64,000 nt of DNA from Bdellovibrionota bacterium (GCA_044356295.1 JBIKWN010000001.1:61434-125433), one strand, 5' to 3'; counted from the stretch's first letter, positions 327 through 63,523 are shown. The notes: a model not told the origin generated them from the letters alone. Numbers and translations: made by a program.

Positions 327-644
327 ATGAAGCCAACAGATATAACTTTTAAAGCAACGAGTATGGCAAAGCCGCTCATTGAATCGATTGCACACCTCCC
401 AGAGTTCGATCAATTCATGAAAAGTTATTTTTTATTCTGGAAAAATCCTCGTATGCATTATGCACCTGGTGGAAAATCAGAAGGCATTCATGAGGAATTA
501 GGCTTTGCGGCAATTATGAAAACACTTCAAGACAGAAGTCAGATAGTTGAATTCTATCATATATCGGAAGTAGAAAAAGTTGGTACCTCAGTTGAGCCAC
601 GCGTAGAAGCAACTTTATCCGTATCTTTAGGAAAACTTCAGTAA
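327..644 (+). CDS. Hypothetical protein, 105 aa
   Basis: Complete ORF lying between the CcmH-like gene and ctaB. No motif was recognised. Confidence 0.35.
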   Translation: MKPTDITFKATSMAKPLIESIAHLPEFDQFMKSYFLFWKNPRMHYAPGGKSEGIHEELGFAAIMKTLQDRSQIVEFYHISEVEKVGTSVEPRVEATLSVSLGKLQ

Positions 645-659
645 GAAACCGTACTTCTA

Positions 660-1529: not shown

Positions 1530-1547
1530 GTAGTTCCGAAAGTATAC

Positions 1548-2543: not shown

Positions 2544-2549
2544 AAAAGA

Positions 2550-43071: not shown

Positions 43072-43445
43072 GAGTTATCAACACCCTTAGTAAAAGTGAC
43101 ATAACTAGTTAAATTTACTATTTAAAATCCGGTAAATACTGTTGATAAGCTCTTGGAGTTTTCAACAATTGCTCTCACTTTCCGGTAATTATCTCTGTAC
43201 CGACAAAACTTTCGAAATTACATAGTATTGTTCACACAGGTTTTCAACACTATAAGATTAGTAATTTCAAGTGGTTATCAGACTTATAAACATTAATTCC
43301 TTTGCCTATTACTACTACTAGTATTTATATATAAAGATCTTAGTACATTAGGACTTTATTTTTTTCTTAAAAGTTTTCTTTAATAGTTTTTCTTTCTTTC
43401 AAAAGTTTTGCTTTAATAGCCTTAAAATAAAATCATTACATACCT
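43072..43445. promoter_or_regulatory. Candidate oriC: an AT-rich dnaA-dnaN intergenic region with DnaA-box-like 9-mers and direct repeats
   Basis: TTATCAACA at 43075-43083 and, as its reverse complement, at 43141-43149. Degenerate TTTTCAACA/TTGTTCACA copies lie between them. An AT-rich tract at 43300-43440 contains a direct repeat 'AAAGTTTT(C/G)(C/T)TTTAATAG' occurring twice, about 30 bp apart. Confidence 0.5.
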
Positions 43446-44609
43446 ATGAAGTTCACTCTCAGTAACACTGATCTTTTCAAAGCATTAAATCTAATCGGAA
43501 ATATTGTTGAAAAAAAAGCAACAATGCCTATTTTGGCAAACGTTTTAATTTCTGCAGAAGAAGGCAAAGTTTTCTTTTCAGGATCAGAGCTTGATATCAC
43601 TGCGCAAACTCAAGTTCCTGCAAAAGTAAAACAAAGAGGAAGTACAACAGTAAACGCAAAGATGTTCTTAGAGGTCGTACGTGAGCTTCCAGAAGGAGAT
43701 GTTGAGCTTACCCTAACACCAGGTGAGAGATTAGAAATAAAAGCAAGGAATTCGAATTTGACGCTCGTAGGGGTAAGTGCACAAGAGTACCCAAGTCTTG
43801 CAGGATTAAGTTTAACTCCGAAGGATTCAATATCATCATCTGTTCTACTAGAAATGATTGAATCAACCCTCTATGCAGTTTCAACAGATGAGACAAGATT
43901 TAACTTAGGAGGAGTTTGTTTTGAATCAGTTCAAACAGGAGACACAGTTTCAGGTCCAAAAATTGTTAGAGGAAAAAAAGATTCTAAAACAAGTACGCTC
44001 CGACTTGTTTCAACTGATGGCCACCGACTTGCATTAATTACTCGAGAAGTAGAGGGACTATCTTTTTCAGGAAGAGTAATAGCACCAAGAAAAGGACTAC
44101 AAGAACTTAAAAAAGTTCTCGAGGATAACAAAGATACAAATATTCTATTCGGAATATCAGAAGGATTTCTTGTTGTAGAATCTCCAACATCAAAACTTAC
44201 CATGCGCCTCATTGACGGAGAATTTCCAGATTACACTCGAGCACTTCCAGAAAAAGAAGGAACAAGAATTACTGTTGATTCTAAAGAACTATCGTCAGCT
44301 TTAAGAAGAGTTGCCCTCTTAGTTTCAGATAAACAAAAATGTGTAAAATTTGATATTCAAAAAGATATGCTTCACATGTCTAGCTCTTCACCTGAGTTAG
44401 GAGAAGCGTTTGTATCACTTCCAATAGAACATAAAGGAAACCCTTTTGTCGTCGGTTTTGATTCAAGATTTATCCGTGATATTAGCGATAATATTGGGGA
44501 ATCTAAGGGTTTTGTTATGGAACTAAATGGAGAAACAGGCCCTGGAAAATTCTATGTGCAAGGTGATGAATCTTCTTTTGGCGTTGTAATGCCAATGAGA
44601 ATTGTTTAG
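43446..44609 (+). CDS. dnaN: DNA polymerase III beta sliding clamp
   Basis: 'MKFTLSNTDLFKALNLIGNIVEKKATMPILANVLI', 387 aa. Confidence 0.95.
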   Translation: MKFTLSNTDLFKALNLIGNIVEKKATMPILANVLISAEEGKVFFSGSELDITAQTQVPAKVKQRGSTTVNAKMFLEVVRELPEGDVELTLTPGERLEIKARNSNLTLVGVSAQEYPSLAGLSLTPKDSISSSVLLEMIESTLYAVSTDETRFNLGGVCFESVQTGDTVSGPKIVRGKKDSKTSTLRLVSTDGHRLALITREVEGLSFSGRVIAPRKGLQELKKVLEDNKDTNILFGISEGFLVVESPTSKLTMRLIDGEFPDYTRALPEKEGTRITVDSKELSSALRRVALLVSDKQKCVKFDIQKDMLHMSSSSPELGEAFVSLPIEHKGNPFVVGFDSRFIRDISDNIGESKGFVMELNGETGPGKFYVQGDESSFGVVMPMRIV

Positions 44610-44626
44610 AAAAAAATAGCACGAGA

Positions 44627-45712
44627 GTGATTCTTTCAGAAATTTCACTTTTTCAATTTAGAAACTCTTGTGACTCCTCTGTTCAATTTTCACCGAAGCT
44701 AAATATCGTTGTTGGAAAAAACGGACAGGGAAAAACAAACCTTGTTGAAGCAATTCACCTTCTATCTACTTCAAAATCGTTTCGCACTTCTCGAACAAGA
44801 GAATTAATTGCGTGGGGACAAAAAGAAGCATCTGTTTTTGGAAACCTCATTACGAGAGCAGGAGATATTCGACTTGGAGTCATACTTTCTTCCGCTTCTA
44901 AAATGTTAATGATTAATGGCACAGCTGAAAAAGCAACTCAATTCATTAGTACTTTTGTAAGCATTACATTTAGCCCTGCAGATATTGAAATCATTAAAGG
45001 TGAAGCAGCAGTTAGAAGACAGTTTTTAGATAAACATTTAGCAGATATTTTTCCTCAATCAATACCGAACCTTTTAAACTATGTAAGAGCTCAAAAAAAT
45101 AAAGTGGCGCTTCTTAAAAGCGGAGCAACTCCCGAAAGTATTCGTCCATGGAACGAGATAATGGCTGTTCATGGATTTGAGATAGATAACTATCGCCGGA
45201 AAGTAATCAGTGAACTTTCAAACAGAGCAGCAATTCATCACCAAAAATTTGCTCATGCAGATGGAGAACTCACCTTAACATTAGAAAGAAAAAGTGATGG
45301 ACTGTTCGAAAAGGTTGACGATTTTAGAGAGCTTTTTGAAAAAAATATTGAAAAAGAAATTTCCAGCGAGCGCTCCTTAGTGGGACCTCACCGTGATGAT
45401 ATTGAATTTTTATATAATGGAATCTCTGCAAGAAAATTTGGCTCCCAAGGACAATCAAAATCAATAGCGATTGCGCTTAAACTTGGACTTATCGATTTAA
45501 TAAATGAACATCGAAAAGAACCACCGGTGGTCATTCTTGATGATGTTGACTCTGAGCTTGATGAGAATCGGCTTGAAAAACTCTATCAACTTCTCTTAAG
45601 CGGAGAGTATCAAGTTTTTATTACTGGAACCTCTGAAAATAGGGCTTTGGAGGCTGCCCCAGAGAGCTGCAAACGATTTCAGATTGATCAAGGAAAAATT
45701 ACTGAAAAATAG
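44627..45712 (+). CDS. recF: DNA replication/repair protein RecF
   Basis: Walker A 'GKNGQGKTNLVEAI', SMC-like signature, 361 aa. Confidence 0.9.
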   Translation: MILSEISLFQFRNSCDSSVQFSPKLNIVVGKNGQGKTNLVEAIHLLSTSKSFRTSRTRELIAWGQKEASVFGNLITRAGDIRLGVILSSASKMLMINGTAEKATQFISTFVSITFSPADIEIIKGEAAVRRQFLDKHLADIFPQSIPNLLNYVRAQKNKVALLKSGATPESIRPWNEIMAVHGFEIDNYRRKVISELSNRAAIHHQKFAHADGELTLTLERKSDGLFEKVDDFRELFEKNIEKEISSERSLVGPHRDDIEFLYNGISARKFGSQGQSKSIAIALKLGLIDLINEHRKEPPVVILDDVDSELDENRLEKLYQLLLSGEYQVFITGTSENRALEAAPESCKRFQIDQGKITEK

Positions 45713-45801
45713 TAATCAACTTATTGAAAAGACAAGATTTTCAGAAAGAAAGACGCTTTTTTAAAAGAGCAAAAAAAGCTATAATCGGTCGATTTATTTA
45801 A

Positions 45802-48270
<2,469 letters not shown>

Positions 48271-51542: not shown

Positions 51543-52772
51543 ATGGCAAAAATTAAGGTAAAAACTCCAGTTGTTGAACTAGATGGAGATGAGATGACAC
51601 GAGTCATCTGGGCTAAGATTAAAAATGAGCTGATTCTTCCTTACCTTGATATTGATCTGAAGTATTTTGACCTCTCAATTCAGCACCGCGATGAAACTTC
51701 AGATAAGGTAACTGTGGAATCAGCAGAAGCGATAAAAAAATACGGAGTTGGGATAAAATGTGCCACGATTACTCCGGATGAAGACCGGGTTAAAGAATTT
51801 TCACTTAAAAAAATGTGGAAATCACCAAATGGAACTATCAGAAATATTATTGGTGGAACTGTTTTTCGTGAACCAATTATCTGTCAAAACGTACCAAGAC
51901 TTGTTTCTGGTTGGAAAGAGCCAGTAGTAATTGGGCGTCACGCATTCGGTGATCAATACCGTGCAACTGATTTCTTAGTTCCTGGAAAGGGTAAGCTTAC
52001 TATGAAGTTTACTCCAGCTGATGGATCTGCTCCTATTGAACACGAAATATATTCTTTTGAAGAATCTGGTATGGCAATGGGGATGTTTAATGTTGATTCC
52101 TCAATTATTGGTTTTGCACGAAGCTGTTTAAATTATGGTTTACTCAAAAAATGGCCAGTATACCTTTCAACTAAGAATACAATTCTTAAAGCATACGATG
52201 GTCGGTTTAAGGATCTGTTCCAGAAAGTTTACGAAGAAGAATTTAAGGCAAAGTTTGATGCTGCAGGAATCTGGTATCAGCACCGTTTAATTGATGACAT
52301 GGTTGCATACTGCATGAAGAGTAGTGGTGGTTTTGTTTGGGCATGTAAAAATTATGATGGTGATGTTCAATCTGATTCGGTGGCACAAGGATACGGATCT
52401 CTTGGTTTGATGACATCTGTTCTTCTTACAGAAGACGGAAATACTGTAGAAACTGAGGCAGCACACGGAACAGTAACAAGGCATTTTAGACAGCATCAGC
52501 AAGGAAAAGAGACTTCTACGAATCCTATTGCTTCAATATTTGCTTGGACAAAGGGGCTTGAATACCGAGCTCGATTTGATAATACTCCGGATGTTGCAGA
52601 GTTTGCAGCTGCGCTTGAAAAGGCGTGTATTGCAACTGTTGAAAGTGGAACTATGACTAAGGATCTAGCGCTTTGTGTCCATGGGGAAAGTGTTGATAGA
52701 TCTCAGTATGTGACTACGGACTGGTTTATGAGTGCTATAGGTCAGAATCTTAGTAGTATTCTAAAAAAATAA
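51543..52772 (+). CDS. icd: NADP-dependent isocitrate dehydrogenase (homodimeric subfamily II, eukaryote-like type)
   Basis: '[23 protein letters not shown]', about 409 aa, matching IDH1/IDH2-type enzymes rather than the E. coli-type. Confidence 0.85.
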
Positions 52773-52809: not shown

Positions 52810-54960
52810 TTAATAAATACTTTTACAATCGGTCAGGATGTTGTCTTCACTTGAAGAAGATTTAAGTTTAATAGTAACAAATGGAACTGTCTTCAAAGCT
52901 TTAGGAAGGGTGAATAGCACACCGTTATCTTTAACTACTGTTGGTATATTTTCTAAGGTATGAGCCAGTATTGCACTTATTGAAGAATCTGGTTGAAGTG
53001 GGCTAGCAAAATTACAAGTCACCATTTTTACATTTGATTGCACAATGAGTGAGCTTAATTCAGAGTTGGAAATCTTTATACGAGGATGAAAGCTAAATTG
53101 AAAACTTCCATCCTCAAGCTCGACTTTATTAGTTAGAAAATCTTTGTAGAGATTAAGATTATCAGTTGAAAAAAGTTTGGAGTTCGATGAATAACTTGAG
53201 GTTACTAGGATGGTGTTAAGATCAATTATCTCAGAAAGAGTCCTTAAGGACTTTTCGTCAGGAAAGCTTGAAAGCTTTTGAGGCAGCTCTTTTACAAGAC
53301 GAGTTTTTATTCCTGTAAACCCATTTATACTTTTTAAGTTATTTTCAACAGACCAAAGTAAGAATTGATTCTGCATTGTCGCAAAATTAAAGAAGCTTTT
53401 AATTCCACCATCTTCTGATTGAGTGTCTCCATATGGAATTAATACTCCAAGAGCACTACTTTTGGATTGATTGGAAGAGATATTTCTTGCCGAGAGAATA
53501 TTTGAGCTCGGCTCAAATGGAAAAACGGCTGAAATATTTTCTAAAAAAATAAAACAACAACAAAGGCAGCAGATTAAAATTTTCTCTCTCTTAGCTTGGA
53601 AAATTGCAAGCCAATAAAATGCAATAAGTGAAAAGAGGTATATAGAAACAATACCAGCTCTGCTAATCGCTCTAAATCCCGAAAAACCAGGTATAAAATT
53701 ATATAAGAAATAGTATGGTGAATAAGAAGCAATATCAGGACGGCTGATAGGTCCAAATGAAATAGCCATAAAAATAAAGGCGAGGGAAGAAAATAATAAA
53801 ATAAGTTCTTGATTTGAAATAATAGTTATTTGGTCAGTTTTTTTTACTATTTTAACTACTACCAATCCCAATAAAATAAGCGAAATCAACGTTAGCCAGG
53901 AAAGAGTAGAATTAAGAATCCAATAAAAATCAGGAATCAGTGTACTTGCTATAAAGAGCGATAGAAAAACAGTAAAAATATATTTGTATTTAATAATTTT
54001 TTTGTGAGTTGCAGAGCAGTAAAAAGAAATCAGCGCTAGTAAAGGAATGAAAATTCCAGTGCCAAGACTTGCCTCAGAGTGTGAAAGATTAAATATTTTT
54101 GAGTAGAGAAAATTAAAAGATCCAAAAGATAAAAAAGATGCAATTGTTGCTTGAAAAGCGTGAGGTTCCCAATACCCGCGGTCTCCAAATGCTTTCAGTA
54201 CATCTAGATAAGGTAATAAAAACGGAAGGGAAGGGGATAGTCCAAAAAGAAAAGTTACTACAAATCGAGAAATGAAAATTACCTTATTATCTGAATGAAA
54301 TCGGACTGCCCACCAAAGAGACATCAGAACAAAAAGTATCCCTGAAAAAAATGTAAGGTAGATTGAACATAAAAAACTACAAAATAGAGATATCCCAATT
54401 AGAAATGGATAAAGAAGTCGTTCTTCCGACACCCACTTTAAAAATAGATAGATAACCAGCGGAACAATCCAAACATGGAGCATTTGAGGATGTCCAAAAT
54501 GAGCCTGTATTGGAGCAAGTTGTGGTGTAAGAATTCCAAAAAAAATACTTAAATAAAAATTTTCAGTAAGACTGTAGAGCAGTAAAAAAGAAAAAAAACC
54601 AAGTAGCAGAAGAGCCACAATAAAAATAATATTCCAACAAAGAATTTTCCCTATTCCTATATTTTTTAAAAGAAAAAATGCAAAAGATGGAAGTATCCAA
54701 TTATCTGAGAAGGCAAGACTTTGGGAGTATGGAAAGAATCCATTTGTTTCAAACCAAGTGCTTGGCGTAACTTGGTATGGAAACAGATTACAAAGCCAAA
54801 TATAAATAGATGTATCTCCACCACTGCCTCCAAGATAATGAGTGGAACTTTGAATAATAATAGACGGGCTAAGTATTAGAAAGGCAACGAGAATACAGAA
54901 GAGAGCTACAGATTTCTGTCTAACTGTTAGTTGAGCAAGGGTGAGAACTGAAGCTTTCAT
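52810..54960 (-). CDS. Large polytopic membrane protein with a soluble C-terminal domain (YfhO/GT-C-like architecture)
   Basis: 716 aa. It has more than 12 hydrophobic helices across its first 470 residues or so, followed by a domain of about 240 aa. Its start overlaps the 3' end of the double-UvrA gene by 41 nt. Confidence 0.45.
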   Translation of the reverse strand: MKASVLTLAQLTVRQKSVALFCILVAFLILSPSIIIQSSTHYLGGSGGDTSIYIWLCNLFPYQVTPSTWFETNGFFPYSQSLAFSDNWILPSFAFFLLKNIGIGKILCWNIIFIVALLLLGFFSFLLLYSLTENFYLSIFFGILTPQLAPIQAHFGHPQMLHVWIVPLVIYLFLKWVSEERLLYPFLIGISLFCSFLCSIYLTFFSGILFVLMSLWWAVRFHSDNKVIFISRFVVTFLFGLSPSLPFLLPYLDVLKAFGDRGYWEPHAFQATIASFLSFGSFNFLYSKIFNLSHSEASLGTGIFIPLLALISFYCSATHKKIIKYKYIFTVFLSLFIASTLIPDFYWILNSTLSWLTLISLILLGLVVVKIVKKTDQITIISNQELILLFSSLAFIFMAISFGPISRPDIASYSPYYFLYNFIPGFSGFRAISRAGIVSIYLFSLIAFYWLAIFQAKREKILICCLCCCFIFLENISAVFPFEPSSNILSARNISSNQSKSSALGVLIPYGDTQSEDGGIKSFFNFATMQNQFLLWSVENNLKSINGFTGIKTRLVKELPQKLSSFPDEKSLRTLSEIIDLNTILVTSSYSSNSKLFSTDNLNLYKDFLTNKVELEDGSFQFSFHPRIKISNSELSSLIVQSNVKMVTCNFASPLQPDSSISAILAHTLENIPTVVKDNGVLFTLPKALKTVPFVTIKLKSSSSEDNILTDCKSIY

Positions 54961-57900
54961 TGCCCTCTGAGTGTAGAGTCTTTGCGTTTTTCAGCAAAGA
55001 GCCCCAAGGGGTTTTGCCTTGAGCTGTTTTAAAAGGTGTTCCAGCAGAGATTACGTTTCCACCGTTTTGCCCAGCTCCGGGACCCATTTCTAGGAAAAAA
55101 TCAGCTGCAGCAATCATATCCATGTCATGTTCTATTACAAAGACTGACGATCCTCTTTCAACAAGTGCTCTTAGAGAATTAATCAATCTAAAAACGTCAC
55201 TTCGGTGAAGTCCAAGAGTCGGTTCATCAAGAATATAGAGAACATGACCTCGAGGATTGCCACTGAGTTCTGAAACAATTTTTAGTCTCTGGGCTTCTCC
55301 TCCAGAGAGCGTCACGGAAGATTGTCCAAGAGTAAGATAGCCAAGTCCTAAGTCGCATGCGATTTTTAAACTCTGATGTATTTTTTTATGATTTGAAAAC
55401 TTACTTTTTGCTTCTTCAAAGGTAAGGCTTAGTACTTCACTAATCGTAAGACCGCCGTATCTAACGATTTGAATATCACTTCCATACCTTGTTCCGCTGC
55501 AGCTTTCGCATTCAACTTTTGCATCAGCAAGAAAATTCATTTCAAGTGTAATAACACCCGCACCTTTACATTCAGAGCATCGTCCTTTTCCAGCATTATA
55601 AGAGAAATGACCCTGATTCCACCCTTGGGCTCTTGCTTCAAGCGTGCTTGCAAACACTTTTCGTATTTCATCCCATACACCTAGATATGAAGCTGGAGTT
55701 GAGCGAGAAGTTGAGCCAATTGGTTTTTGATCAAGATAAACAATTTTATCGATATTTTCATCAAATGTTATCTCTCCACGTTCCGAAGATATCGTATTTT
55801 TTTTATTTTTCCCTTCTCGAAGAGTGTAGTTAATAATTTCATGTATGAGGGTACTTTTTCCTGAGCCCGAAACTCCACCAATCGTTACAAGCTGCTTTAG
55901 GGGAAGTGTCGTAGAAAGATTTTTAATTGTATGACAGTTAGCATTTTTTACCTTTAACTCAGGCGTTTTTTTCTTTACAACTTCGGCAATTTGCAGTGGG
56001 AGTGCTAAGGCAGCACCAGTTGGCGTTGTCCTATCAGTGTATGAAGTGACAGGCCCTTGAAAAACAATTTCACCTCCGTGAATTCCAGCCATGGGACCAA
56101 TATCAATTATATGATCTGCTGACTTAATTGATTCGATGTCATGCTCAATTAAAATAACAGCATTATTGTTGTAGTTAAGAGTCCTTAATTTTTTTAGAAC
56201 CAATCTGTTATCAAGTGGATGTAGTCCAGCACTCGGCTCGTCAAAAATATACATTACTCCTGAAAGAGGAGATCCCATTGCGGTTGCTAATCGAAGGCGT
56301 TGTAATTCCCCACCAGAAAGTGTTCTGCAACTTCTAGAGAGCGAAATATAATCTAAACCTAGCTCACACAGAGACAATAACTTTGAGCGGAGTTCAATTA
56401 TTACTGGTTCAGCAAGGGCTTGGTTCATTTTAGTAAGCGTCTGTGAGATCTTATCTAAAAATACAAGAAGTTCTCGAGGAGTTAAGCTTGAGCTCTCAAA
56501 GATATTTTTTCCGAATATACGTATATTTCTTCCAATAGCTTGTATGCGGGCTCCCTGACAACTTGTACATACAACTTGTTTTTCATCATGACCAAATCCG
56601 TCACATTCAGCACACCGGCCTCGCTTGGAATTAAATGAAAGATCTTCTGGGTCTACTTTAAAAAATCCAGTTTCACAGACGGGACATGCTCTTTTTGAAC
56701 TTAATATCTCTTCTTTGCCAGAATCAGAGAGAATAATAATGGAACCACCACCTAAGGTTAAAGCTGTTTCTATAGTTTCAACGAGAACTTCTTTGTTAAT
56801 AGTTTTTGGATTAAATTTTGCAATGACAAAATCAATAGAATGAACTTTTGATTTTGTTAGTCCTTCTGCAAAATGAGATGTCTTTCCAAGCACTGAATCA
56901 ACACGTACTTCAAGAATCTCTGATTCGATAGCTCGAATAAATACCGCTTGATGACTTCCTTTTTTCTTAATGATGACAGGGGATAGAAGTCGAATCGTTG
57001 CATCTTTTCGATTCATAATTTTTGTTGCAATTTCTTGAGCAGAAAGAGGTGCTATCTCTTGATCCGGATGGTCGGGACAGTACTGTGTTCCAGTTTTTGC
57101 ATAAAGAAGTCTTAAGAAGTTATATACTTCTGACATCGTTGCCACGGTAGATAGAGCAGATGGTTGAAACGTATGCTGATAGACACAAATAGTAGGTCGT
57201 ACATTACGAATTGAATCAATATCAGGTTTTTTAAGCTCTTTAATAAATTGTCTTGCGTATGGAGACAAACAATCAAGGTACCTGCGTTGTCCTTCAGCAA
57301 AGATTATATCTTTTGCTAACGTTGATTTTCCAGAACCGGATACTCCTGTGATGGCTACAACTTTATCGACCGGAATAGAGACTGATATATTTTTAAGATT
57401 ATGCTCCCTGGCTCCTTTGATCTCTAGCTCAGATGTTTTTGTTACATCAGTAGTTTTCTGAGGATTTTTAGCTTTTGCACGAATTGTGTTTCCACAAGAA
57501 GAGATATAGGTGGAAAGGTGGTTTGCTGTTTCGTTTTTCTTTTCTTTTAGAAGCTCGGGGAGTGTTCCTTGAAAAAGCAGATGTCCCCCTTCTTCTCCTC
57601 CTTCAGGACCTAGATCAATAATCCAATCGGCATTTTGAATGACTGAAAGATTGTGTTCAATACACAGCACTGAGTTTCCACGAGAAATAAGTTCTCTGAG
57701 TAGTCGAATAAAATTTTCAACATCATGGACATGAAGCCCAGAGGTGGGTTCGTCAAAAATAAATAGATAATGTTTTGATGAGTTCTCGGATAGATATGGA
57801 ACAAGTTTTAAACGCTGGGCTTCGCCTCCACTTAATTCACTAAGAGGATGTCCTAAACGACACGCACCTAATCCAAGTTTTTGCAGAACTAAAAGTGTCG

Positions 57901-60268
57901 CTGATACTGATTTATTATTAAGTTGTGTGAAAAAAGTATATGCATCATCGACAGACATCGAAAGATATTCGTCAACGTTTTTTCCTTTATAAAAAATGTT
58001 AAGAACTGAAGGTTGGAATCTCTTTCCGAGGCATGATTCACAAGGAACATAGACATCACTTAAAAACTGCATGTCCTCTCTAATAAAGCCGGCTCCTTCA
58101 CAGCTGGTACACCGTCCAGCGTTAACATTAAAGCTAAAACTAGATTTGCTAAATCCTAGTGCCTGGGCTTCTTCGGTGCTTGCAAGGAGGTCTCGAATGA
58201 CGTCCCAAATTTTTGTGTATGTAGCAATATTGGCACGAGGCGTTTTTGCAAGTGGACTTTGATCCACAAAGATAAGCTCATCAATTTTTGAAAATCCTGC
58301 ACTCTTTTCGAAACCAAAAGCTGAGTCAATGATACCTTTATGGAGCTTCCATGCATTTAAGATTACTTCATGAGCAAGGGTGCTTTTCCCGGAACCACTA
58401 ACTCCCGTTAAGCAGGTGAGGGTCTTTAGAGGGATTTGAACATTACATGATTTTAAGTTTCGGGCCGAAGCTTTAAAAATAGAGATTGAATCATTTAGAT
58501 TAACTTTTTCAGTAGCGTTGATTCGTTTTGCTATCTGAACACCTTTCCATTTGGAAGCAGGGCCATTAAAAATAACATCACCACCAAATGTTCCAGCCTT
58601 TGGACCAATCTCAATAATATGATCAGCTTCAGTAATCACATCCGGATCATGCTCTACGACTAAAAGAGAATTTCCCTTTTGAGTCAGATTTTTCATGGCT
58701 CTTGTCAATCTTTCAGAATCTCTTGCATGAAGCCCAATTGAAGGTTCATCAAGTACAAATTGAGTTGAAGTAAGCTCACTTCCAAGGGCAGTTGCTAAGT
58801 TAACACGTTGGGTTTCTCCACCAGAAAGGGTTTTTGCTTGTCTGTCCAACGTAAGATACGGCAGACCAAGGTTTTCAAGATACTGAAGCCTGCCAACGAG
58901 ATTTTCAAAAGGACTTTGTAAAGCTTGATAAAGTGCTTTATTTTTTTTTGCTTCAATTTGAAGCTCTTTAATCCAAGATAGAAGTCTTCCAATCGGAAGG
59001 GACCAGATTTCGCCGATATGTTTATTATTCACTCGAAATGCCAAAGCCTGAGCTTTTAGTCTTGAGCCACTGCAAGATGAGCAAACTTTTTGCTCTCGGT
59101 ACCGAGATAAGAAAACTCGTACATGCATCTTATAAGTTTTTTTCTCAAGCCATTGGAACCAATGATCTACCCCCCAAAAGTCTTTCTCTTTGGTTTCAAA
59201 AATTTTTCTTTTTTGAATGTCGGATAAGTTTTTCCACGGAATATCTGTGGCAATCCCTTCACGTTTAGCAAAAGTAAGTAGGCTTTTAAATTCCCATTCA
59301 GCTGATGGTCCTGACCAACAAGCTATAGCATGTTCTTCGAGTGTTTTTGAAACATCAGGAACTACTTTTGATTCAGAGATTGATAGAGTAAATCCAAATC
59401 CTTTACAAAGTTCGCATGCACCAATTGGATGGTTAAAAGAAAAAAGTGCTGTTTTAGGTACTTCAGCAGTGAAGTCATGTTTCTCGCACCGAAATGATTT
59501 CGAGAATATTTTTTTTATAAAAGGCTTATCCTTTTCTGATTGTAAAAGAAGTGTTACTTCGTTTGGGTTTAATGAAAAACCCGCATCAAGAGATGTCTTT
59601 AACCGTGAAATTTGAACAGCGCCTGAAATGCGATCAAGGATAACTGTTATAGTGCTGATATTCTTAAAATCTTTTTTACTAATCTCGCTAAGCTGTATAA
59701 CAAGGCCTGTATGAGGGTGAAGTATTCGGGAATATCCTAATGTTTTTAATCTATCTATTTCAAAATCAATAAATTTTTTGTTGCAGTGAACTTCAGCTGC
59801 GATAAGTATAGAAAAATTATCTTTAATAAGATCTTGGATTTGTGCTGCTATAGTAGCGCTATTCCAACGCACTAACCCTTCATCACAAACAGGGCAATGA
59901 GGAATAGCAAGAGATCCCCAAATTACTTTCAAATAATCATTACTATTAGTAAGTGAACCAACAGTTGATCTGGCGCTGGTAATTCTCGTTCTTTGCTGAA
60001 TAGAAATCGCAGGGCGAACATTTTCTAACTTTTCAACAAGTGGCTTTTTTACCTTATCAAAAAATTGTCGTGTATACGGTGAAAAAGTTTCAATATATCT
60101 GCGTTGACCTTCAGCATAGACCGTATCAAAGGCGAGTGATGATTTACCGGATCCAGACAGACCAGTAATCACTGTTAATTCGTCATGAGGAATCTCAAGA
60201 GAGATGTTCTTTAAGTTATTCTCTTGAGCACCAATAATTTTTAGAGATTCTTTGTGCTTACCATTCAT
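54920..60268 (-). CDS. Tandem-fused double UvrA-like protein (two complete UvrA modules, four ABC ATPase domains)
   Basis: 1782 aa, uninterrupted. Each half contains a UvrA N-terminal NBD ('GLSGSGKSSLAFDTVYAEGQRRY' and 'GVSGSGKSTLAKDIIFAEGQRRY'), Zn-finger Cys pairs, a UvrB-binding/insertion-like segment, and a second NBD with LSGGE signature and Walker B (four 'DEP(S/T)xGLH' motifs in total). The halves are clearly divergent, so this is not an assembly duplication. Confidence 0.85.
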   Translation of the reverse strand: MNGKHKESLKIIGAQENNLKNISLEIPHDELTVITGLSGSGKSSLAFDTVYAEGQRRYIETFSPYTRQFFDKVKKPLVEKLENVRPAISIQQRTRITSARSTVGSLTNSNDYLKVIWGSLAIPHCPVCDEGLVRWNSATIAAQIQDLIKDNFSILIAAEVHCNKKFIDFEIDRLKTLGYSRILHPHTGLVIQLSEISKKDFKNISTITVILDRISGAVQISRLKTSLDAGFSLNPNEVTLLLQSEKDKPFIKKIFSKSFRCEKHDFTAEVPKTALFSFNHPIGACELCKGFGFTLSISESKVVPDVSKTLEEHAIACWSGPSAEWEFKSLLTFAKREGIATDIPWKNLSDIQKRKIFETKEKDFWGVDHWFQWLEKKTYKMHVRVFLSRYREQKVCSSCSGSRLKAQALAFRVNNKHIGEIWSLPIGRLLSWIKELQIEAKKNKALYQALQSPFENLVGRLQYLENLGLPYLTLDRQAKTLSGGETQRVNLATALGSELTSTQFVLDEPSIGLHARDSERLTRAMKNLTQKGNSLLVVEHDPDVITEADHIIEIGPKAGTFGGDVIFNGPASKWKGVQIAKRINATEKVNLNDSISIFKASARNLKSCNVQIPLKTLTCLTGVSGSGKSTLAHEVILNAWKLHKGIIDSAFGFEKSAGFSKIDELIFVDQSPLAKTPRANIATYTKIWDVIRDLLASTEEAQALGFSKSSFSFNVNAGRCTSCEGAGFIREDMQFLSDVYVPCESCLGKRFQPSVLNIFYKGKNVDEYLSMSVDDAYTFFTQLNNKSVSATLLVLQKLGLGACRLGHPLSELSGGEAQRLKLVPYLSENSSKHYLFIFDEPTSGLHVHDVENFIRLLRELISRGNSVLCIEHNLSVIQNADWIIDLGPEGGEEGGHLLFQGTLPELLKEKKNETANHLSTYISSCGNTIRAKAKNPQKTTDVTKTSELEIKGAREHNLKNISVSIPVDKVVAITGVSGSGKSTLAKDIIFAEGQRRYLDCLSPYARQFIKELKKPDIDSIRNVRPTICVYQHTFQPSALSTVATMSEVYNFLRLLYAKTGTQYCPDHPDQEIAPLSAQEIATKIMNRKDATIRLLSPVIIKKKGSHQAVFIRAIESEILEVRVDSVLGKTSHFAEGLTKSKVHSIDFVIAKFNPKTINKEVLVETIETALTLGGGSIIILSDSGKEEILSSKRACPVCETGFFKVDPEDLSFNSKRGRCAECDGFGHDEKQVVCTSCQGARIQAIGRNIRIFGKNIFESSSLTPRELLVFLDKISQTLTKMNQALAEPVIIELRSKLLSLCELGLDYISLSRSCRTLSGGELQRLRLATAMGSPLSGVMYIFDEPSAGLHPLDNRLVLKKLRTLNYNNNAVILIEHDIESIKSADHIIDIGPMAGIHGGEIVFQGPVTSYTDRTTPTGAALALPLQIAEVVKKKTPELKVKNANCHTIKNLSTTLPLKQLVTIGGVSGSGKSTLIHEIINYTLREGKNKKNTISSERGEITFDENIDKIVYLDQKPIGSTSRSTPASYLGVWDEIRKVFASTLEARAQGWNQGHFSYNAGKGRCSECKGAGVITLEMNFLADAKVECESCSGTRYGSDIQIVRYGGLTISEVLSLTFEEAKSKFSNHKKIHQSLKIACDLGLGYLTLGQSSVTLSGGEAQRLKIVSELSGNPRGHVLYILDEPTLGLHRSDVFRLINSLRALVERGSSVFVIEHDMDMIAAADFFLEMGPGAGQNGGNVISAGTPFKTAQGKTPWGSLLKNAKTLHSEGNESFSSHPCSTNS

Positions 60269-61657
60269 TTATTTGCCCATCATACCACGGAATGCTGATT
60301 CTAGCGTGGGAGATGTAAATGCAAAATTAGATTCAAGAAGTTTTTTTGGAATTATTCTTTGAGAAGAAAGAATTGTTTCATCAGCCATTTGACCAAAGAC
60401 AAGCCTTAGAAACAAAGGTGGAACAGGGAAAAGGCAAGGACGCCTCAGTACCGTTGAGAGAGTTCTGCTGAACTCTAAATTGGTTGTTGCTTTTGGCAAA
60501 CAGAAATTGAAAGCACCACTTACTTCTTGGCTAGCAGCTAAATGATACAGTCCATAGATGACATCATCTTTTGAAATACAGCTCATGAAGCGTTGCCCTT
60601 TTCCGATTGGGCCACCAATACCTAATTGGAAGGGAAGAAGAAGTTTTTTTAAAGCACCACCATCAGGCGAAAGAATTATTCCAAATCTTGCATGGCAAAC
60701 CCGAATACCGATTTTATTAAGGGGCGTTGAAGCCTCTTCCCATTGTCTTACTACGTCGGCCAGAAAACCTTCTCCTTGCGGAGAGCTCTCATCAACTTCA
60801 ATTTTTGTGTCAGTTCCATAAAAACCAGAACCAGACGCCGAAATAAAAGTTTTAGGTTTGTTTTTTAACTTCGAAATGCATTCCACTAAAAAAGAAGTTG
60901 TTTCAACTCGAGAACGTAGGATCGTATCTTTCACTAAAGTACTCCACCGTTTTGCAACAGATTCTCCAGAAAGATGGATAATATGATCAAAGCCCTCTAA
61001 CGAATCAGGACTTATGATTTTTTTATAAGGATTCCATGGAATTCTTTTAACAGCATCGGGGATACCTTCATCATTTCCTCGAGAAAGGATAGAGACCGAA
61101 TGTCCAGCAGTTAACAGAAATGCAACAAGACTCTTGCCGAGAAACCCACTTGCACCTGATATCAGAAAATTTTGTTGCGTTTGAAAACTTCCCTTGTATT
61201 TTTCAATAACAGAAAGATCTTGTAGGGTTATGTGGTGTCGGTATTTAAAAAGCCTTTCTAATTTTTTTCTAAAAATCCAACCAAACAATGGTTCTGACAA
61301 TATTGGAAATGGCAGTGAAAACGATAACTCATCTTTAAGAATAGAAGTATGTGAGCTTACTCCTTCAAAGACATGTTGATGCTTCCAAGATTTAAAAGGA
61401 CCGTTAACTTGATGGTCTTCGAATTTTTTATTTTCTATATATCCTTTATGGGTAAGATTCCAACGAATTCCGATTTTTCCGAAAACTGGAACCTTAATGA
61501 CGACTGTTGCTCCGTCTCGAATGCCCCCTGAGTGAGAAACTAATTCAACTGGCTCAAAAGGGGGATTTAGTCTGAGAAACGCACCAGGACGCTCATGCCA
61601 AGCAAAAAGATCTTCAACTGGAATAGGAAATTCTTTTTGAAAGGTAAGTGTAATCAA
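60269..61657 (-). CDS. SRPBCC-domain and TIGR01777/YfcH-type NAD-dependent epimerase (SDR39U1) fusion protein
   Basis: An N-terminal START/SRPBCC-like domain of about 145 aa, then a Rossmann 'ISGASGFLGKSLV' domain and a C-terminal DUF1731-like 'ILSSQRIIPKKLLESNFAF'. Its stop directly abuts the double-UvrA start codon. Confidence 0.65.
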   Translation of the reverse strand: MITLTFQKEFPIPVEDLFAWHERPGAFLRLNPPFEPVELVSHSGGIRDGATVVIKVPVFGKIGIRWNLTHKGYIENKKFEDHQVNGPFKSWKHQHVFEGVSSHTSILKDELSFSLPFPILSEPLFGWIFRKKLERLFKYRHHITLQDLSVIEKYKGSFQTQQNFLISGASGFLGKSLVAFLLTAGHSVSILSRGNDEGIPDAVKRIPWNPYKKIISPDSLEGFDHIIHLSGESVAKRWSTLVKDTILRSRVETTSFLVECISKLKNKPKTFISASGSGFYGTDTKIEVDESSPQGEGFLADVVRQWEEASTPLNKIGIRVCHARFGIILSPDGGALKKLLLPFQLGIGGPIGKGQRFMSCISKDDVIYGLYHLAASQEVSGAFNFCLPKATTNLEFSRTLSTVLRRPCLFPVPPLFLRLVFGQMADETILSSQRIIPKKLLESNFAFTSPTLESAFRGMMGK

Positions 61658-62085
61658 CCAAAGACCTCTTTGGCGACAGTAGCTGCAAGCTTTCCATCAT
61701 ACTGACCATTATGTGAATCTTTTAAGCTCTTCATAGCTCCACCTTGATTGATAGTAGCGTCATTTGCTTTCAGTGAAGCAAAGAAAGAGCTTAACTCTTC
61801 TTTTGTCATTTGTTTTGGAAGAAACGATTCAAGAACAGAGATCTCAATAAGAAGTTTTTCTAAAAGTTCTGGTCTGTTTCCCTTCTCTGCAAATTCAATC
61901 TCTTCCTTTCTTTTTTTTAGCTCTCGTTGAAGAATTGCCATAACATCAGTAATGCTTGCATCGGATATTCCTTTTTGCATTTCATCATACTGAATTTCAC
62001 TTAAGACCCCTCGAATTGTTGAAAGCTTAACAGCATCCTTTGCTTTCATTGCTTCTTTCATTTCGGTTTTTAATCTTTCTTTCAT
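61654..62085 (-). CDS. yqeY: GatB/YqeY-domain protein
   Basis: 'MKERLKTEMKEAMKAKDAVKLSTIRGVLSEIQ' is the typical YqeY N-terminus. 143 aa. It overlaps the downstream gene by 4 nt. Confidence 0.7.
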   Translation of the reverse strand: MKERLKTEMKEAMKAKDAVKLSTIRGVLSEIQYDEMQKGISDASITDVMAILQRELKKRKEEIEFAEKGNRPELLEKLLIEISVLESFLPKQMTKEELSSFFASLKANDATINQGGAMKSLKDSHNGQYDGKLAATVAKEVFG

Positions 62086-62090
62086 ACGAC

Positions 62091-62498
62091 CTATATTTTT
62101 TTGAATTCTTTTAAAAATTTTTCTAATTTAGCAGTGGTTTCGGCGCTTACAAGATGTTCAATCTTACATGCATCAATCTCGGCTTGACCTGGGCTCACAC
62201 GAAGTACCTTTTCAAAAAATTCTTTTACTAACTCGTTTCTGACCACAATTGCTTTTGCAAGCCGCTCGCCTTCGGATGATAAGATCAGAAATTTATTATC
62301 ATCTTCAACAATAAATCCTTTTTGTTTCAAACTTTTGAGGTTTGTAGAAGCACTACCAGTTGTGATGTTTAACTCTTTAGCAACGTCAGTAACTCGGGCA
62401 TAGCCACGCTTTGCACGAAGATCCATTATGGCTAATAGATGATGAGCAGCACTGTGTGTGATGTCGTTTTCTTCAAATTGCTTCCAAACGTCTTCCAT
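62091..62498 (-). CDS. DtxR/MntR-family metal-dependent transcriptional regulator
   Basis: Winged-helix region 'GYARVTDVAKELNITTGSASTNLKSLKQKGFIVED' with a dimerisation helix. 135 aa. It is the first gene of the five-gene same-strand cluster. Confidence 0.6.
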   Translation of the reverse strand: MEDVWKQFEENDITHSAAHHLLAIMDLRAKRGYARVTDVAKELNITTGSASTNLKSLKQKGFIVEDDNKFLILSSEGERLAKAIVVRNELVKEFFEKVLRVSPGQAEIDACKIEHLVSAETTAKLEKFLKEFKKI

Positions 62499-62634
62499 AA
62501 TTTATGCTATCTAACTAAAAGCATATTGTAGATGCAAAGAATTGATATATCAAGCAAATGCTCTGCTGCTATTTTTGGCAATGTAAAATAAGCTGTGATA
62601 GGCTACTTGGTGTCATTTTTATCGATTTTAAACT

Positions 62635-63477
62635 GTGAATAACTTACAGATAAGCCCCAAAAAACTTAATATTATCATTAAGTTAGTCTTATTTTTGGTC
62701 TGTCTATTACCTGTTGGCTACACGAAATTTGCATTTTCTGAAGTAGATCCAGCCGAAGCCATTAAAAATAAAGAGATAGGCTTTGAAACAGCTCTAGGTA
62801 CCAAGCTAGATACTCAGATACCTTTTACAGATGAAGATGGAAATCAGACATCTTTATCCTCTTTATTGAAACCAGCACAGCCAACTCTTTTTGTACCTAT
62901 GTACTTTAGCTGCCCAAGGCTTTGTGGGCTTCTTATGAATGGCTTCATAGAGCTTATTAGGAAACTTGACCTTAAGCAGGGCTCTGAATACAACGTTGTT
63001 ACTTTAAGTTTTGACCCAACTGAAGACTCAAAGTTAGCTAAAGATAAGCAACAAACAGTTCTAAAAGAAATTGATAGGTCAGACATTACTCCTAAAAGTT
63101 GGAGGTTTTTGACTGGTAAAGAGGAAAATATCAAGAAACTCCTTGATCAAGCAGGCTATAAATATAAGTTTGCAGAAGGGGAATACCTTCATTCCTCTGG
63201 TTTCTTTATATTGACCTCTGAGGGAGAAATCTCACAATATTTCACCGGAATAGATTTTTCTGCTTGGGATGTAAGACTTGCTATGGTTGAAGCATCTAAG
63301 GGTGGGATAGGAAGTGCTGTTGATCATATTTTGTTGTATTGCTACGACTTTGATCCTTCAAAGGGTAAATATACATTAACTGCATTTAATGTTCTGCGTT
63401 TCGGGACTCTTTTTGCTGTTATTCTTTTCTTCATTGTTGCCGTTAAGCTGTCAAGAAGGGTCGTCAAAAACAATTGA
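62635..63477 (+). CDS. SCO1/SenC-family copper chaperone (thioredoxin fold)
   Basis: CxxxC 'CPRLC' and a downstream conserved His ('YLHSSGFFILTSEGEI'). It sits immediately upstream of coxB. At 280 aa it is longer than typical Sco proteins because of an N-terminal extension. Confidence 0.55.
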   Translation: MNNLQISPKKLNIIIKLVLFLVCLLPVGYTKFAFSEVDPAEAIKNKEIGFETALGTKLDTQIPFTDEDGNQTSLSSLLKPAQPTLFVPMYFSCPRLCGLLMNGFIELIRKLDLKQGSEYNVVTLSFDPTEDSKLAKDKQQTVLKEIDRSDITPKSWRFLTGKEENIKKLLDQAGYKYKFAEGEYLHSSGFFILTSEGEISQYFTGIDFSAWDVRLAMVEASKGGIGSAVDHILLYCYDFDPSKGKYTLTAFNVLRFGTLFAVILFFIVAVKLSRRVVKNN

Positions 63478-63523
63478 TACATCTATAATAGTCGCTAAAT
63501 AAACTCAAAGGATTACTAAGTAA

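Follow-up and report, generated by a model that had tools for sequence, protein, structure and literature searches.

A tightly packed, origin-proximal five-gene run in an uncultured Bdellovibrionota genome: probable compaction of an older syntenic block

Results

Five abutting genes and their surroundings

The window analysed here, a stretch of 64,000 nucleotides, comes from an uncultured Bdellovibrionota genome and contains at 52810-62498 five minus-strand ORFs with products of 135, 143, 462, 1,782 and 716 aa (Table 1). Read from dtxR to the GT-C gene, the ORF list gives junction spacings of +5, -4, 0 and -41 nt, exactly the gaps that an earlier note on this DNA had claimed. The genes dnaA, dnaN, recF and gyrB occupy 41.6-48.3 kb of the window, about 10 kb from the cluster, which places it near the replication origin.

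Table 1. Features of the five-gene cluster and its flanks, with positions in the window
Feature	Position	Strand	Remarks
Isocitrate/isopropylmalate dehydrogenase gene (IsoDH)	51543..52772	+	convergent; 37 nt between it and the GT-C stop; bounds the cluster on the 3' side
716-aa polytopic membrane protein (GT-C gene)	52810..54960	-	predicted GT-C glycosyltransferase fold, C-terminal periplasmic beta-rich domain
Tandem UvrA, 1,782 aa	54920-60268	-	two full UvrA copies, four NBDs
Tandem UvrA, first half, residues 1-940	57449..60268	-	two intact NBDs, insertion (DNA-binding) domain, degenerate UvrB-binding domain
Tandem UvrA, second half, residues 941-1782	54920..57448	-	two intact NBDs, good UvrB-binding domain
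SRPBCC-YfcH fusion (sdr), 462 aa	60269..61657	-	TTG start; TIGR01777 and DUF1731
SRPBCC/START-like N-domain, residues 1 to ~160	61178-61657	-	PF03364
Weak internal promoter-like site	60298..60325	-	TTTGCA-16-TAGAAT, 9/12; 3' end of sdr, ~30 nt upstream of the uvrA ATG
YqeY (GatB/YqeY-domain), 143 aa	61654..62085	-	PF09424, 4e-29
DtxR/MntR-family regulator (dtxR), 135 aa	62091..62498	-	winged HTH and dimerisation/metal domain, without SH3 domain
Candidate sigma70-like promoter	62525..62553	-	TTGATA-17-TACAAT, 10/12 consensus matches, ~26 nt upstream of the dtxR ATG
Perfect 12-bp palindrome	62542..62553		overlaps the -35 hexamer; candidate DtxR-like operator
SCO1/SenC copper-chaperone gene (sco1)	62635..63477	+	divergent from dtxR
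coxB (cytochrome oxidase subunit II)	from 63526, runs off the window		after sco1

At the yqeY/SDR junction the letters TTGA contain both the SDR start codon (TTG) and the yqeY stop codon (TGA), preceded 7 nt upstream by AGAGG, and at the SDR/uvrA junction a TAA stands directly before the uvrA ATG. The GT-C ATG (54960) lies inside the 3' end of uvrA, with GAGGG at 54967-54963, so that SD-like motifs are found at the two overlapping junctions of the cluster. No convincing terminator was detected between the cluster genes, as the terminator-like hairpins were weak; one of them, at 55023-55003 ahead of the GT-C start, was rejected because its fold z-score of -1.18 is not significant. Tandem repeats were absent from 52-64 kb, and a search against Rfam at the gathering threshold led to no RNA family anywhere in the window.

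The spacing itself has to be judged against the rest of the window, which is ~93% coding. According to naive longest-ORF calls, 56% of its same-strand junctions are no wider than 10 nt and 72% no wider than 30 nt, and it holds five runs of at least three tightly packed genes, one of them comprising seven genes. As tight spacing is thus the norm of the window, the packing of the cluster does not go beyond the genome default. Nevertheless, the genes abut, and their co-transcription, which the earlier note had deduced from the gaps, is therefore plausible; one upstream sigma70-like site, the SD-like motifs at two junctions and the lack of a convincing terminator agree with it. In this organism, one regulated transcript may cover all five genes.

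A DtxR-type regulator and a candidate operator

The 135-aa regulator matched PF02742 (Fe_dep_repr_C) with 52.6 bits (cutoff 27; 4.6e-14) and was borderline for PF01325 (25.8 bits, cutoff 26), with MntR and DtxR as the best sequence matches in the PDB. It shares with DtxR/IdeR the winged HTH, the dimerisation/metal domain and a C-x-x-E-H triad equivalent to DtxR C102/E105/H106, whereas its score for the DtxR equivalog is far below the cutoff; its size and two-domain layout are similar to those of MntR. For a comparison of the metal ligands, the residue offset between the regulator and DtxR was derived from the equal-length phmmer alignment to 1fwz, and we take the DtxR ligands to be M10, C102, E105 and H106 at the primary site and H79, E83 and H98 at the ancillary site. 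With this numbering, H19, C111, E114 and H115 of the regulator align with the primary site, His replacing Met10, and the ancillary-site ligands are absent, as is the C-terminal SH3 domain. The binuclear ligands of MntR were found to be replaced in 10/10 orthologues at D8 (by H), E11 (by L), H77 (by N or K) and E99 (by C), with only E102 and H103 kept, and the NCBIfam MntR equivalog models gave 71.6 and 64.4 bits (cutoffs 153 and 138). By its ligands and by these scores, the protein does not qualify as the Mn sensor MntR.

The search for an operator palindrome between dtxR and sco1 (62499-62634) that the earlier note had proposed was successful in so far as a candidate by sequence, TTGATATATCAA, is present in this interval. 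An inverted-repeat search upstream of dtxR had missed it, its arms being only 6 nt long, and the palindrome was seen by reading the sequence. A DNA motif search revealed it as the sole perfect match in the window, and related motifs of the form TTGAyATAyCAA occur upstream of the dtxR orthologues in five loci of relatives (L003, L004, L016, L014 and L007). A conserved candidate operator was confined to the dtxR/sco1 intergenic region, with none ahead of uvrA or the GT-C gene. In 9 loci sco1 and dtxR are arranged divergently, accompanied by cox genes where the flank reaches far enough. The palindrome TTGATATATCAA is a candidate site for autoregulation of the DtxR-like regulator and/or control of the divergent sco1-coxB, to which the protein would bind.

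The promoter assignments call for some care, as 29 promoter-like sites were observed in the region and 37 were expected, which is no enrichment, and several 9/12 sites lie inside the cluster genes. The weak site before uvrA lies in coding sequence; L004 and L031 share a TAGAAT at a similar distance ahead of uvrA, whereas L003 does not. A LexA site was also looked for: the Bdellovibrio-type LexA box, which we take to be TTACN3GTAA, has 2 matches in the 64 kb, a count compatible with chance, and none at the promoter side of the cluster.

YqeY and the SRPBCC-YfcH protein

YqeY matched PF09424 over residues 2-140 with 101.9 bits (cutoff 27), and its gene is located directly downstream of dtxR in every locus with dtxR. 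The 462-aa protein combines the START-like N-domain with a YfcH-type atypical SDR part (residues ~161-462) and exceeded the TIGR01777/YfcH cutoff of 207.35 with 288.1 bits, together with a match to DUF1731 (PF08338; 8.5e-16). Its SRPBCC assignment is marginal, since Polyketide_cyc (PF03364) scored 21.0 bits with the whole protein (below 23.4) and 23.9 bits with residues 1-160 alone; relatives of the protein carry PF03364/PF10604. With this reservation, the four identities proposed before from the sequence, DtxR family, YqeY, SRPBCC-SDR fusion and double UvrA, were all borne out by profile matches. The fusion of a START-like domain to a YfcH-type epimerase occurs in many phyla: hundreds of proteins of the same architecture and length (~455-480 aa) are annotated as 'TIGR01777 family oxidoreductase', and it was found in Verrucomicrobiota, Planctomycetota, Gemmatimonadota, Bacteroidota, Myxococcota and others. 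E. coli YfcH and human SDR39U1 are named relatives, and no notable difference from the known fusion proteins was apparent. Orthologues of ~297-321 aa in four of the related loci (L004, L018, L027 and L030) are without the SRPBCC domain.

A widespread tandem UvrA with unequal halves

The 1,782-aa protein displays four GxSGSGKS, four LSGGE and four DEP(S/T) motifs as well as the zinc modules, and scored 1,754 bits with the canonical UvrA equivalog NF001503 (cutoff 1,147). Canonical (class I) features are present, each accessory domain being well preserved in one half only. The first half matched PF17755 (1.7e-11) and remained below the 23.3-bit cutoff of PF17760 with 20.4 bits. The second half gave 52.6 bits with PF17760 and no match to PF17755, and its insertion domain is deleted (CAECDGFG and CTSCQGAR separated by 7 residues). 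This asymmetry between the halves is kept in all 120 nearest homologues.

Class II UvrA proteins are single-length and are not known to have a UvrB-binding domain. The clear UvrB-binding domain in the second half and the match to the canonical equivalog set the present protein apart from them. According to a preprint, class II (UvrA2, DrrC, Ecm16) is a UvrA paralogue type that is sometimes tied to drug or xenobiotic resistance (bioRxiv 10.1101/2022.02.02.478902). A closer formal parallel is the chlamydial double UvrA (NF001885/PRK00635), likewise two complete units head to tail with ~1,780 aa, four NBDs and the plain annotation UvrABC system protein A, for which C. trachomatis ct333 measures 5,361 bp and 1,786 aa (PMC6686042). 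As the window protein scored 1,039.8 bits with NF001885, far under the cutoff of 3,054, it is not a chlamydial orthologue by this model; it belongs instead to a very large environmental family, mostly from Bdellovibrionota or 'Deltaproteobacteria'. A literature search for a formal class name of tandem UvrA returned only the ct333 size and the class II background. Tandem UvrAs of ~1,750-1,900 aa exist in thousands, forming at least 8,000 clusters and all annotated simply as UvrA, and the four-NBD UvrA is therefore not the unusual protein it had been taken for.

A membrane protein with a predicted GT-C fold

The features that define the GT-C superfamily were recognised in the 716-aa protein, namely a predicted polytopic fold and a long first extracytoplasmic loop with conserved acidic residues; the invariant D49 (GGxxGD) and D86 (SDN) are both predicted to lie in this loop. 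Neither this protein nor 10 relatives matched any Pfam or NCBIfam model, YfhO (PF09586) and PMT_2 included, even at E <= 0.1. From the description 'GT-C/YfhO-like' given before, the GT-C part is hence retained as a predicted fold, whereas no sequence match to YfhO was obtained. Sequence similarity to the GT-C structures of AftD, STT3/PglB, Pmt1/2/4, AftA and ArnT was likewise not detectable. The family amounts to 473 to 4,016 representatives, and the 26 genome loci in which it was located belong to Bdellovibrionota, 'Deltaproteobacteria' or 'Dadabacteria' MAGs. A DUF6311 label attached to the distant match P0011 was discarded: it was not reproduced by hmmscan, and the context of P0011 is without uvrA.

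Gene order in relatives

Gene order was compared across ~35 related loci, a sample anchored on the GT-C gene in which the loci are not phylogenetically independent. A syntenic block emerged that consists of cox/sco1 (divergent), dtxR-yqeY-sdr, an opposite-strand metallopeptidase-like gene, uvrA, the GT-C gene, convergent icd and glmU, with an aldo-keto reductase gene often following the GT-C gene. The relative order thus recurs across Bdellovibrionota, but the five-gene unit is intact only in the window and in its closest relative, L003 (gaps of 2, -4, 0 and -38 nt), that is, in 2 of the 12 contexts showing both dtxR and the GT-C gene. Elsewhere the parts are separated by opposite-strand genes, by insertions of 2-16 kb, by inversion, or through loss of sdr/uvrA. 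An opposite-strand DUF8575/DUF6782-like gene separates sdr from uvrA in L004, L027, L029, L031 and on the P0005 contig; ~16 kb (helicase, Rrf2, a cbb3 oxidase cluster and others) separate uvrA from the GT-C gene in L029/L001; dtxR-yqeY directly adjoin the GT-C gene in L007 and L021, sdr and uvrA not lying between; and L028 has uvrA and the GT-C gene in convergent orientation.

The position of uvrA relative to the GT-C gene could be read in 30 informative contexts: uvrA immediately precedes the GT-C gene in 10 of them, precedes it at a distance of 2-5 kb in 5 and is convergent with it in 1, while the other 14 are without uvrA. The gaps in the 10 contexts with direct same-strand adjacency, where GT-C identity goes down to ~26-30%, include -41, -38, 9, 11, 30, 45 and 55 nt, with overlaps of 41 nt in L002 and 38 nt in L003. 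In a rough NJ tree of the GT-C proteins, direct uvrA adjacency appears in two clades and eroded states elsewhere. IsoDH, a recurrent GT-C neighbour that was used as synteny control, lies immediately next to the GT-C gene or no more than 10 kb away in ~11 contexts, about as often as UvrA. The unrelated IsoDH is thus similarly persistent by the GT-C gene, and adjacency is therefore attributed to shared descent.

Discussion

From the broken gene order in relatives, the dense packing of the whole window and the persistence of the unrelated IsoDH, the region most likely derives from an old syntenic block of Bdellovibrionota, located near the origin and composed of unrelated housekeeping and envelope genes, that was compacted specifically in this lineage; to this reading we assign a probability of roughly three in four. 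The ancestral order would roughly have been cox and sco1 (opposite strand), the dtxR-like gene, yqeY, the yfcH-type SDR gene, the oppositely oriented DUF8575/DUF6782 metallopeptidase-like gene, and then tandem uvrA with the GT-C gene, followed often by the aldo-keto reductase gene, then by icd and glmU and further on by gyrB-recF-dnaN-dnaA. In the lineage of the window, the opposite-strand gene and the reductase gene would have been lost or moved, which would have left two formerly separate same-strand units, dtxR-yqeY-sdr and uvrA-GT-C, abutting each other. Most transcription of the joined units now probably starts at the promoter ahead of dtxR, to which a leftover internal promoter in front of uvrA may add, and co-transcription that arose by such compaction is plausible in this genome. 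The five products most likely act independently. The regulator would be a DtxR-type one-site metal sensor that probably binds TTGATATATCAA at its own -35 hexamer, in the intergenic region that its gene shares with sco1-coxB. The motifs of the tandem UvrA point to a damage sensor of nucleotide excision repair that may work as a single-chain pseudo-dimer, and the fold of the 716-aa protein suggests a polyprenyl-phosphate-sugar-dependent envelope glycosyltransferase.

An observation that speaks against compaction alone is the adjacency of uvrA and the GT-C gene, which is more persistent than for most other pairs; selection for co-expression could be the reason. The pair alone might then be a translationally coupled functional unit, joining for instance envelope glycan modification and excision repair, with the three upstream genes as bystanders. 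The direct same-strand adjacency in a third of the informative contexts and in two clades of the tree is in line with this, as are the GT-C start within the 3' end of uvrA behind GAGGG, the overlaps in L002 and L003 and a junction that is free of significant structure or a terminator. Still, we consider such a unit unlikely, as uvrA is not nearby in nearly half of these contexts and convergent or 2-5 kb away in others, and the unrelated IsoDH is a similarly persistent neighbour. Moreover, tandem UvrAs vastly outnumber the GT-C family, and most of them therefore cannot depend on a GT-C protein. We know of no biochemical link between UvrA and GT-C enzymes. A precedent for the linkage of uvrA to genes of membrane or envelope proteins has been described as the uvrA1-dCSP-1-dsbA-dsbB arrangement of Deinococcus, a proposed operon (PMC5867870), but the genes next to uvrA1 there are unrelated to those of the cluster, with no GT-C, DtxR or YqeY among them, it stems from another phylum, and the proposal was derived from gene order only. 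If the pair were a selected, translationally coupled unit of Bdellovibrionota, and if in the lineage of the window a DtxR-type metal sensor that also serves sco1-cox had taken control of it, one regulon would link excision repair to envelope glycan modification and to metal or respiratory status; this extended version appears very unlikely.

The combination of genes is not a recognised operon, as had been pointed out before, and the earlier note had suggested a dedicated module possibly related to xenobiotics or DNA damage. In such a module the DtxR-like regulator would control an SRPBCC-SDR, a tandem UvrA and a membrane protein that share a substrate or stress. The abutting and overlapping genes behind a single promoter-like site and palindrome would suit this idea, as would the similar packing in L003 and the relative gene order recurring in many Bdellovibrionota. 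However, the unit is interrupted or incomplete in all but the closest relative, which goes against it by the refuting condition on gene order that the earlier note had set, the operator-like motif is missing ahead of uvrA and the GT-C gene, the UvrA has the full canonical features of nucleotide excision repair and scores as the UvrA equivalog, every part is widespread on its own, and PADLOC gave no defence matches beyond UvrA-fold homology. A dedicated functional module is thus not supported, and we regard it as hardly credible. Finally, a MADS-type anti-phage ATPase (mad3/mad8-like) with its neighbours as accessory genes can practically be dismissed, since the PADLOC matches of the 1,782-aa protein to mad3 (4e-138, 459 bits) and mad8 (2e-57) arise from UvrA homology, whereas the same protein lies above the cutoff of the canonical UvrA equivalog with its 1,754 bits and has zinc modules, UvrB-binding domain and insertion domain, the other four genes show no PADLOC model match beyond a weak HTH, and methyltransferase or nuclease partners are not found nearby.

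The compaction reading carries a caution for similar clusters, as same-strand genes abut by default where a genome is 93% coding. Only the comparison with relatives exposed the apparent 'operon' as a probable recent fusion of neighbouring units of an origin-proximal block. For annotation, the regulator can be used as a likely DtxR-type one-site sensor paired with sco1-cox and the tandem UvrA as a widespread form, and the 716-aa protein belongs to a sizeable family of predicted GT-C fold without a Pfam model. The tandem UvrA chain combines one insertion domain with one good UvrB-binding domain, and this asymmetric protein could serve as a naturally occurring means to approach the long-standing question of the number of UvrB molecules that a UvrA dimer must have for loading.

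Layout of the cluster

The ORF scan returned exactly the five genes and coordinates of the earlier note, with junctions of +5, -4, 0 and -41 nt (see table). The called start codons are consistent with the junction sequences: the TTG start of the SRPBCC-YfcH gene (sdr) overlaps the yqeY TGA and is preceded by AGAGG 7 nt 5' of it, the uvrA ATG follows immediately after the TAA at the sdr/uvrA junction, and GAGGG at 54967-54963, within the uvrA 3' end, lies directly 5' of the membrane-protein ATG. Upstream, dtxR shares a region of 136 nt with the divergent SCO1/SenC gene (sco1), and a convergent isocitrate/isopropylmalate dehydrogenase gene (icd, IsoDH), 37 nt off, bounds the cluster downstream. 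By naive ORF calls the window has a coding fraction of ~93%, 56% of its same-strand junctions are ≤10 nt and five runs of ≥3 tightly packed genes occur, the longest with seven genes; the tight packing of the cluster is thus not exceptional for this sequence. The region as a whole is close to the origin: dnaA, dnaN, recF and gyrB are found 5-10 kb away, which puts the cluster ~10 kb from the origin region. The dnaA-dnaN gap measures 374 nt.

Features of the cluster and its surroundings (window coordinates)
Feature	Position	Strand	Basis	Remark
dtxR-family regulator, 135 aa	62498-62091	-	ORF scan	
yqeY, 143 aa	62085-61654	-	ORF scan	
sdr, 462 aa	61657-60269	-	ORF scan	TTG start
uvrA, 1,782 aa	60268-54920	-	ORF scan	
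GT-C membrane-protein gene, 716 aa	54960-52810	-	ORF scan	
sco1 (SCO1/SenC)	62635-63477	+		divergent, upstream bound
coxB	from 63526	+		next after sco1
dnaA	41608-43071	+		with dnaN, recF, gyrB within 41608-48270 (+)
Promoter-like site TTGATA-17-TACAAT	62553-62525	-	consensus match	best in region
Perfect 12-bp palindrome TTGATATATCAA	62542-62553		sequence read and search	includes -35 element of the promoter-like site
Weak promoter-like site TTTGCA-16-TAGAAT	30 nt before uvrA			resembles uvrA-preceding sequence of loci L004 and L031; not retained in L003

Gene order in related genomes

A genome scan with the membrane-protein profile led to 26 loci (L numbers), labelled almost all as Bdellovibrionota or Bdellovibrionales MAGs. 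The window genes were mapped on all fetched loci by tblastn and ORF clustering, and Pfam-labelled contexts from exact look-ups were added. The common block opens with opposite-strand cox genes and sco1, followed by dtxR, yqeY and sdr, continues with a DUF8575/DUF6782 metallopeptidase-like gene, also on the opposite strand, between sdr and uvrA, and ends with uvrA, the GT-C gene (often then an aldo-keto reductase), icd, glmU and gyrB/recF/dnaN. Conservation of the intact neighbourhood, proposed as a check on the five-gene module, was found outside the window in L003 only, the nearest relative among the loci compared (identities of 94% for DtxR, 77% for UvrA and 49% for the GT-C protein; gaps of 2, -4, 0 and -38). 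Elsewhere, the opposite-strand metallopeptidase-like gene separates sdr from uvrA (L004, L027, L029, L031 and the contig carrying GT-C homologue P0005), and on the single 497-kb contig of L029/L001 uvrA and the GT-C gene stand ~16 kb apart, with a DEAD helicase, Rrf2, a cbb3 oxidase cluster, a desaturase and a radical-SAM gene in the inserted stretch. The GT-C gene directly follows dtxR-yqeY in L007 and L021, the block lacks uvrA in L016 and L018, and uvrA and the GT-C gene are convergent in L028. Of 30 informative contexts, 10 have uvrA immediately upstream of the GT-C gene and 5 have it 2-5 kb upstream; in 1 it is convergent, and in the other 14 it is missing from the vicinity. When the GT-C proteins were placed on a rough NJ tree, direct adjacency fell into two clades and the rest of the tree showed eroded states, a pattern that fits an ancestral neighbourhood decaying through insertion and rearrangement.

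The earlier note had seen a co-transcribed, dedicated module, possibly related to xenobiotics or DNA damage. Co-transcription of the five genes in the window lineage is probable, but a dedicated module is not borne out, the intact form being limited to the window and L003. Rather, the cluster is probably a syntenic block of genes unrelated in function that became compacted in this lineage. Because neither the metallopeptidase-like gene nor the aldo-keto reductase has a homologue anywhere in the 64-kb window, the apparent operon is most simply explained by loss or relocation of both.

ALTERNATIVES

Alternatively, uvrA and the GT-C gene may form a two-gene functional pair, since within the block only dtxR and yqeY stay together more persistently. 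Against this, tandem UvrAs outnumber the GT-C family by orders of magnitude, and uvrA keeps its place beside the GT-C gene much as a control neighbour does, the unrelated IsoDH gene, which is directly adjacent to the GT-C gene or ≤10 kb away in ~11 contexts, including L033, where it is flipped and now co-directional with and upstream of the GT-C gene. That such a pair is a selected unit tied to the metal sensor is improbable. A role of UvrA in a defence system (MADS) was rejected: its PADLOC matches to mad3 (459 bits) and mad8 (193 bits) are expected from shared ancestry, the score on canonical UvrA is ~4x higher, and no other cluster gene matched a PADLOC defence model beyond weak HTH matches. 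The mad3 and mad8 models are probably triggered by any canonical UvrA and could produce false positives when genomes are scanned for defence systems.

The DtxR-like regulator and its putative operator

Assignment of the first gene to the DtxR/MntR family was upheld by Fe_dep_repr_C (52.6 bits) and by MntR and DtxR as best PDB sequence matches; its scores are far under the cutoffs of the MntR and DtxR equivalog models. Aligned to MntR of B. subtilis, 10 orthologues have H, L, N/K and C in place of the Mn ligands D8, E11, H77 and E99, and retain E102 and H103. In an equal-length alignment, C111, E114 and H115 matched the primary-site residues C102, E105 and H106 of DtxR, and H19 matched Met10; neither the ancillary site nor the SH3 domain of DtxR is present. 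Two orthologues (L014 1099-1623 and L016 6497-7042) end in an additional, Cys/His-rich C-terminal stretch of ~40 residues, e.g. CKVCGDHCLLADC, which hints at a further metal site.

The suggested search for an operator palindrome in 62499-62634 yielded TTGATATATCAA as a candidate. TTGAyATAyCAA-type sequences also occur 5' of the dtxR start in L003, L004, L016, L014 and L007. Across 490 kb of loci only 11 sites lie within one mismatch, four of them upstream of dtxR, ~30-60 nt from the start; neither uvrA nor the GT-C gene is preceded by one. In 9 of 12 contexts having dtxR, sco1 is divergent from it, usually with cox genes alongside. The arrangement with sco1 and then cytochrome-oxidase genes is thus almost constant (window, L003, L004, L005, L014, L016, L021 and L029), and a conserved TTGAyATAyCAA palindrome occupies the shared intergenic region, which would point to a regulator that depends on metal and acts on the assembly of the respiratory oxidase. 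Autoregulation, control of sco1-cox or both, via the candidate palindrome, would be the simplest inference.

Promoter-like sites were not enriched overall in the region, terminator-like hairpins were weak and located within genes, and no significant structure was detected at the uvrA to GT-C junction. The cluster has no LexA-type box, and no Rfam family was found in the window. Between sco1 and coxB, TTACTAAGTAA at 63513-63523 (+) fits the LexA-type pattern TTACN3GTAA, with a window count compatible with chance.

Encoded proteins

The fourth gene indeed encodes a double UvrA of two complete units in tandem, 38% identical in their best local segment, with intact Walker A, signature and Walker B motifs in all four instances. 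In half 1 the insertion (DNA-binding) domain is retained but the UvrB-binding domain is degenerate; in half 2 the UvrB-binding domain is good and just 7 residues of the insertion domain are left, flanked by two CxxC motifs. This asymmetry is present in 120/120 nearest homologues. With a single good site for docking UvrB, a pseudo-dimer built as one chain is relevant to the stoichiometry of UvrA and UvrB. UvrAs of ~1,750-1,900 aa are abundant (at least 8,000 candidates, all scored ones with E < 1e-100), and the top 120 are all double length and annotated plainly as excinuclease ABC subunit A. Double-length UvrA has long been known in Chlamydia (ct333, with 5,361 bp and 1,786 aa; PMC6686042); the window protein shares this architecture, but scores under the chlamydial equivalog cutoff.

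The second gene matched the YqeY domain model, and the third encodes a TIGR01777/YfcH atypical SDR with DUF1731, whose N-terminal SRPBCC domain is barely over the Pfam threshold when scanned on its own. Of its 1,211 homologues (E ≤ 1e-20), the best 120 are nearly all 444-500 aa long with 96-100% query coverage, come from Verrucomicrobiota, Planctomycetota, Gemmatimonadota, Anaerolineae, Bacteroidota, Myxococcota and others, and are named 'TIGR01777 family oxidoreductase'. Hence this fusion, like the double UvrA that the earlier note called unusual, is widespread and has an existing annotation.

No Pfam or NCBIfam match was obtained for the fifth protein. An AlphaFold2 model built on 10 homologues was confident (pLDDT 79.5, pTM 0.82), and the loop joining transmembrane helices 1 and 2, where GT-C enzymes carry their catalytic acidic residues, has D49 (GGxxGD) and D86 (SDN) as invariant residues. 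From the model and these residues the protein is predicted to be GT-C-like at the fold level, and the other half of its former label, YfhO-like, is unsupported given the missing Pfam and NCBIfam matches. By its modelled fold it is a member of an undescribed family within the well-known GT-C superfamily. A profile search retrieved 473 representatives with E < 1e-30, rising to 4,016 with E < 1e-10, and Pfam domains were absent from all 10 relatives tested; neither Pfam nor NCBIfam has a model covering the family (P0002-P0273). Between the window and L003 the GT-C protein is merely 49% identical, compared with 69-94% for its neighbours, and its gene is the lowest-GC part of the region (0.32-0.35). 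In distant relatives, its commonest same-strand downstream neighbour is the aldo-keto reductase (PF00248, 1.6e-71; L005, L007, L008, L011, L015, L021, L023 and L024), replaced in L013 and L014 by a second, PMT_2-like GT-C protein, and in L002 a nucleotide-sugar gene set lies downstream.
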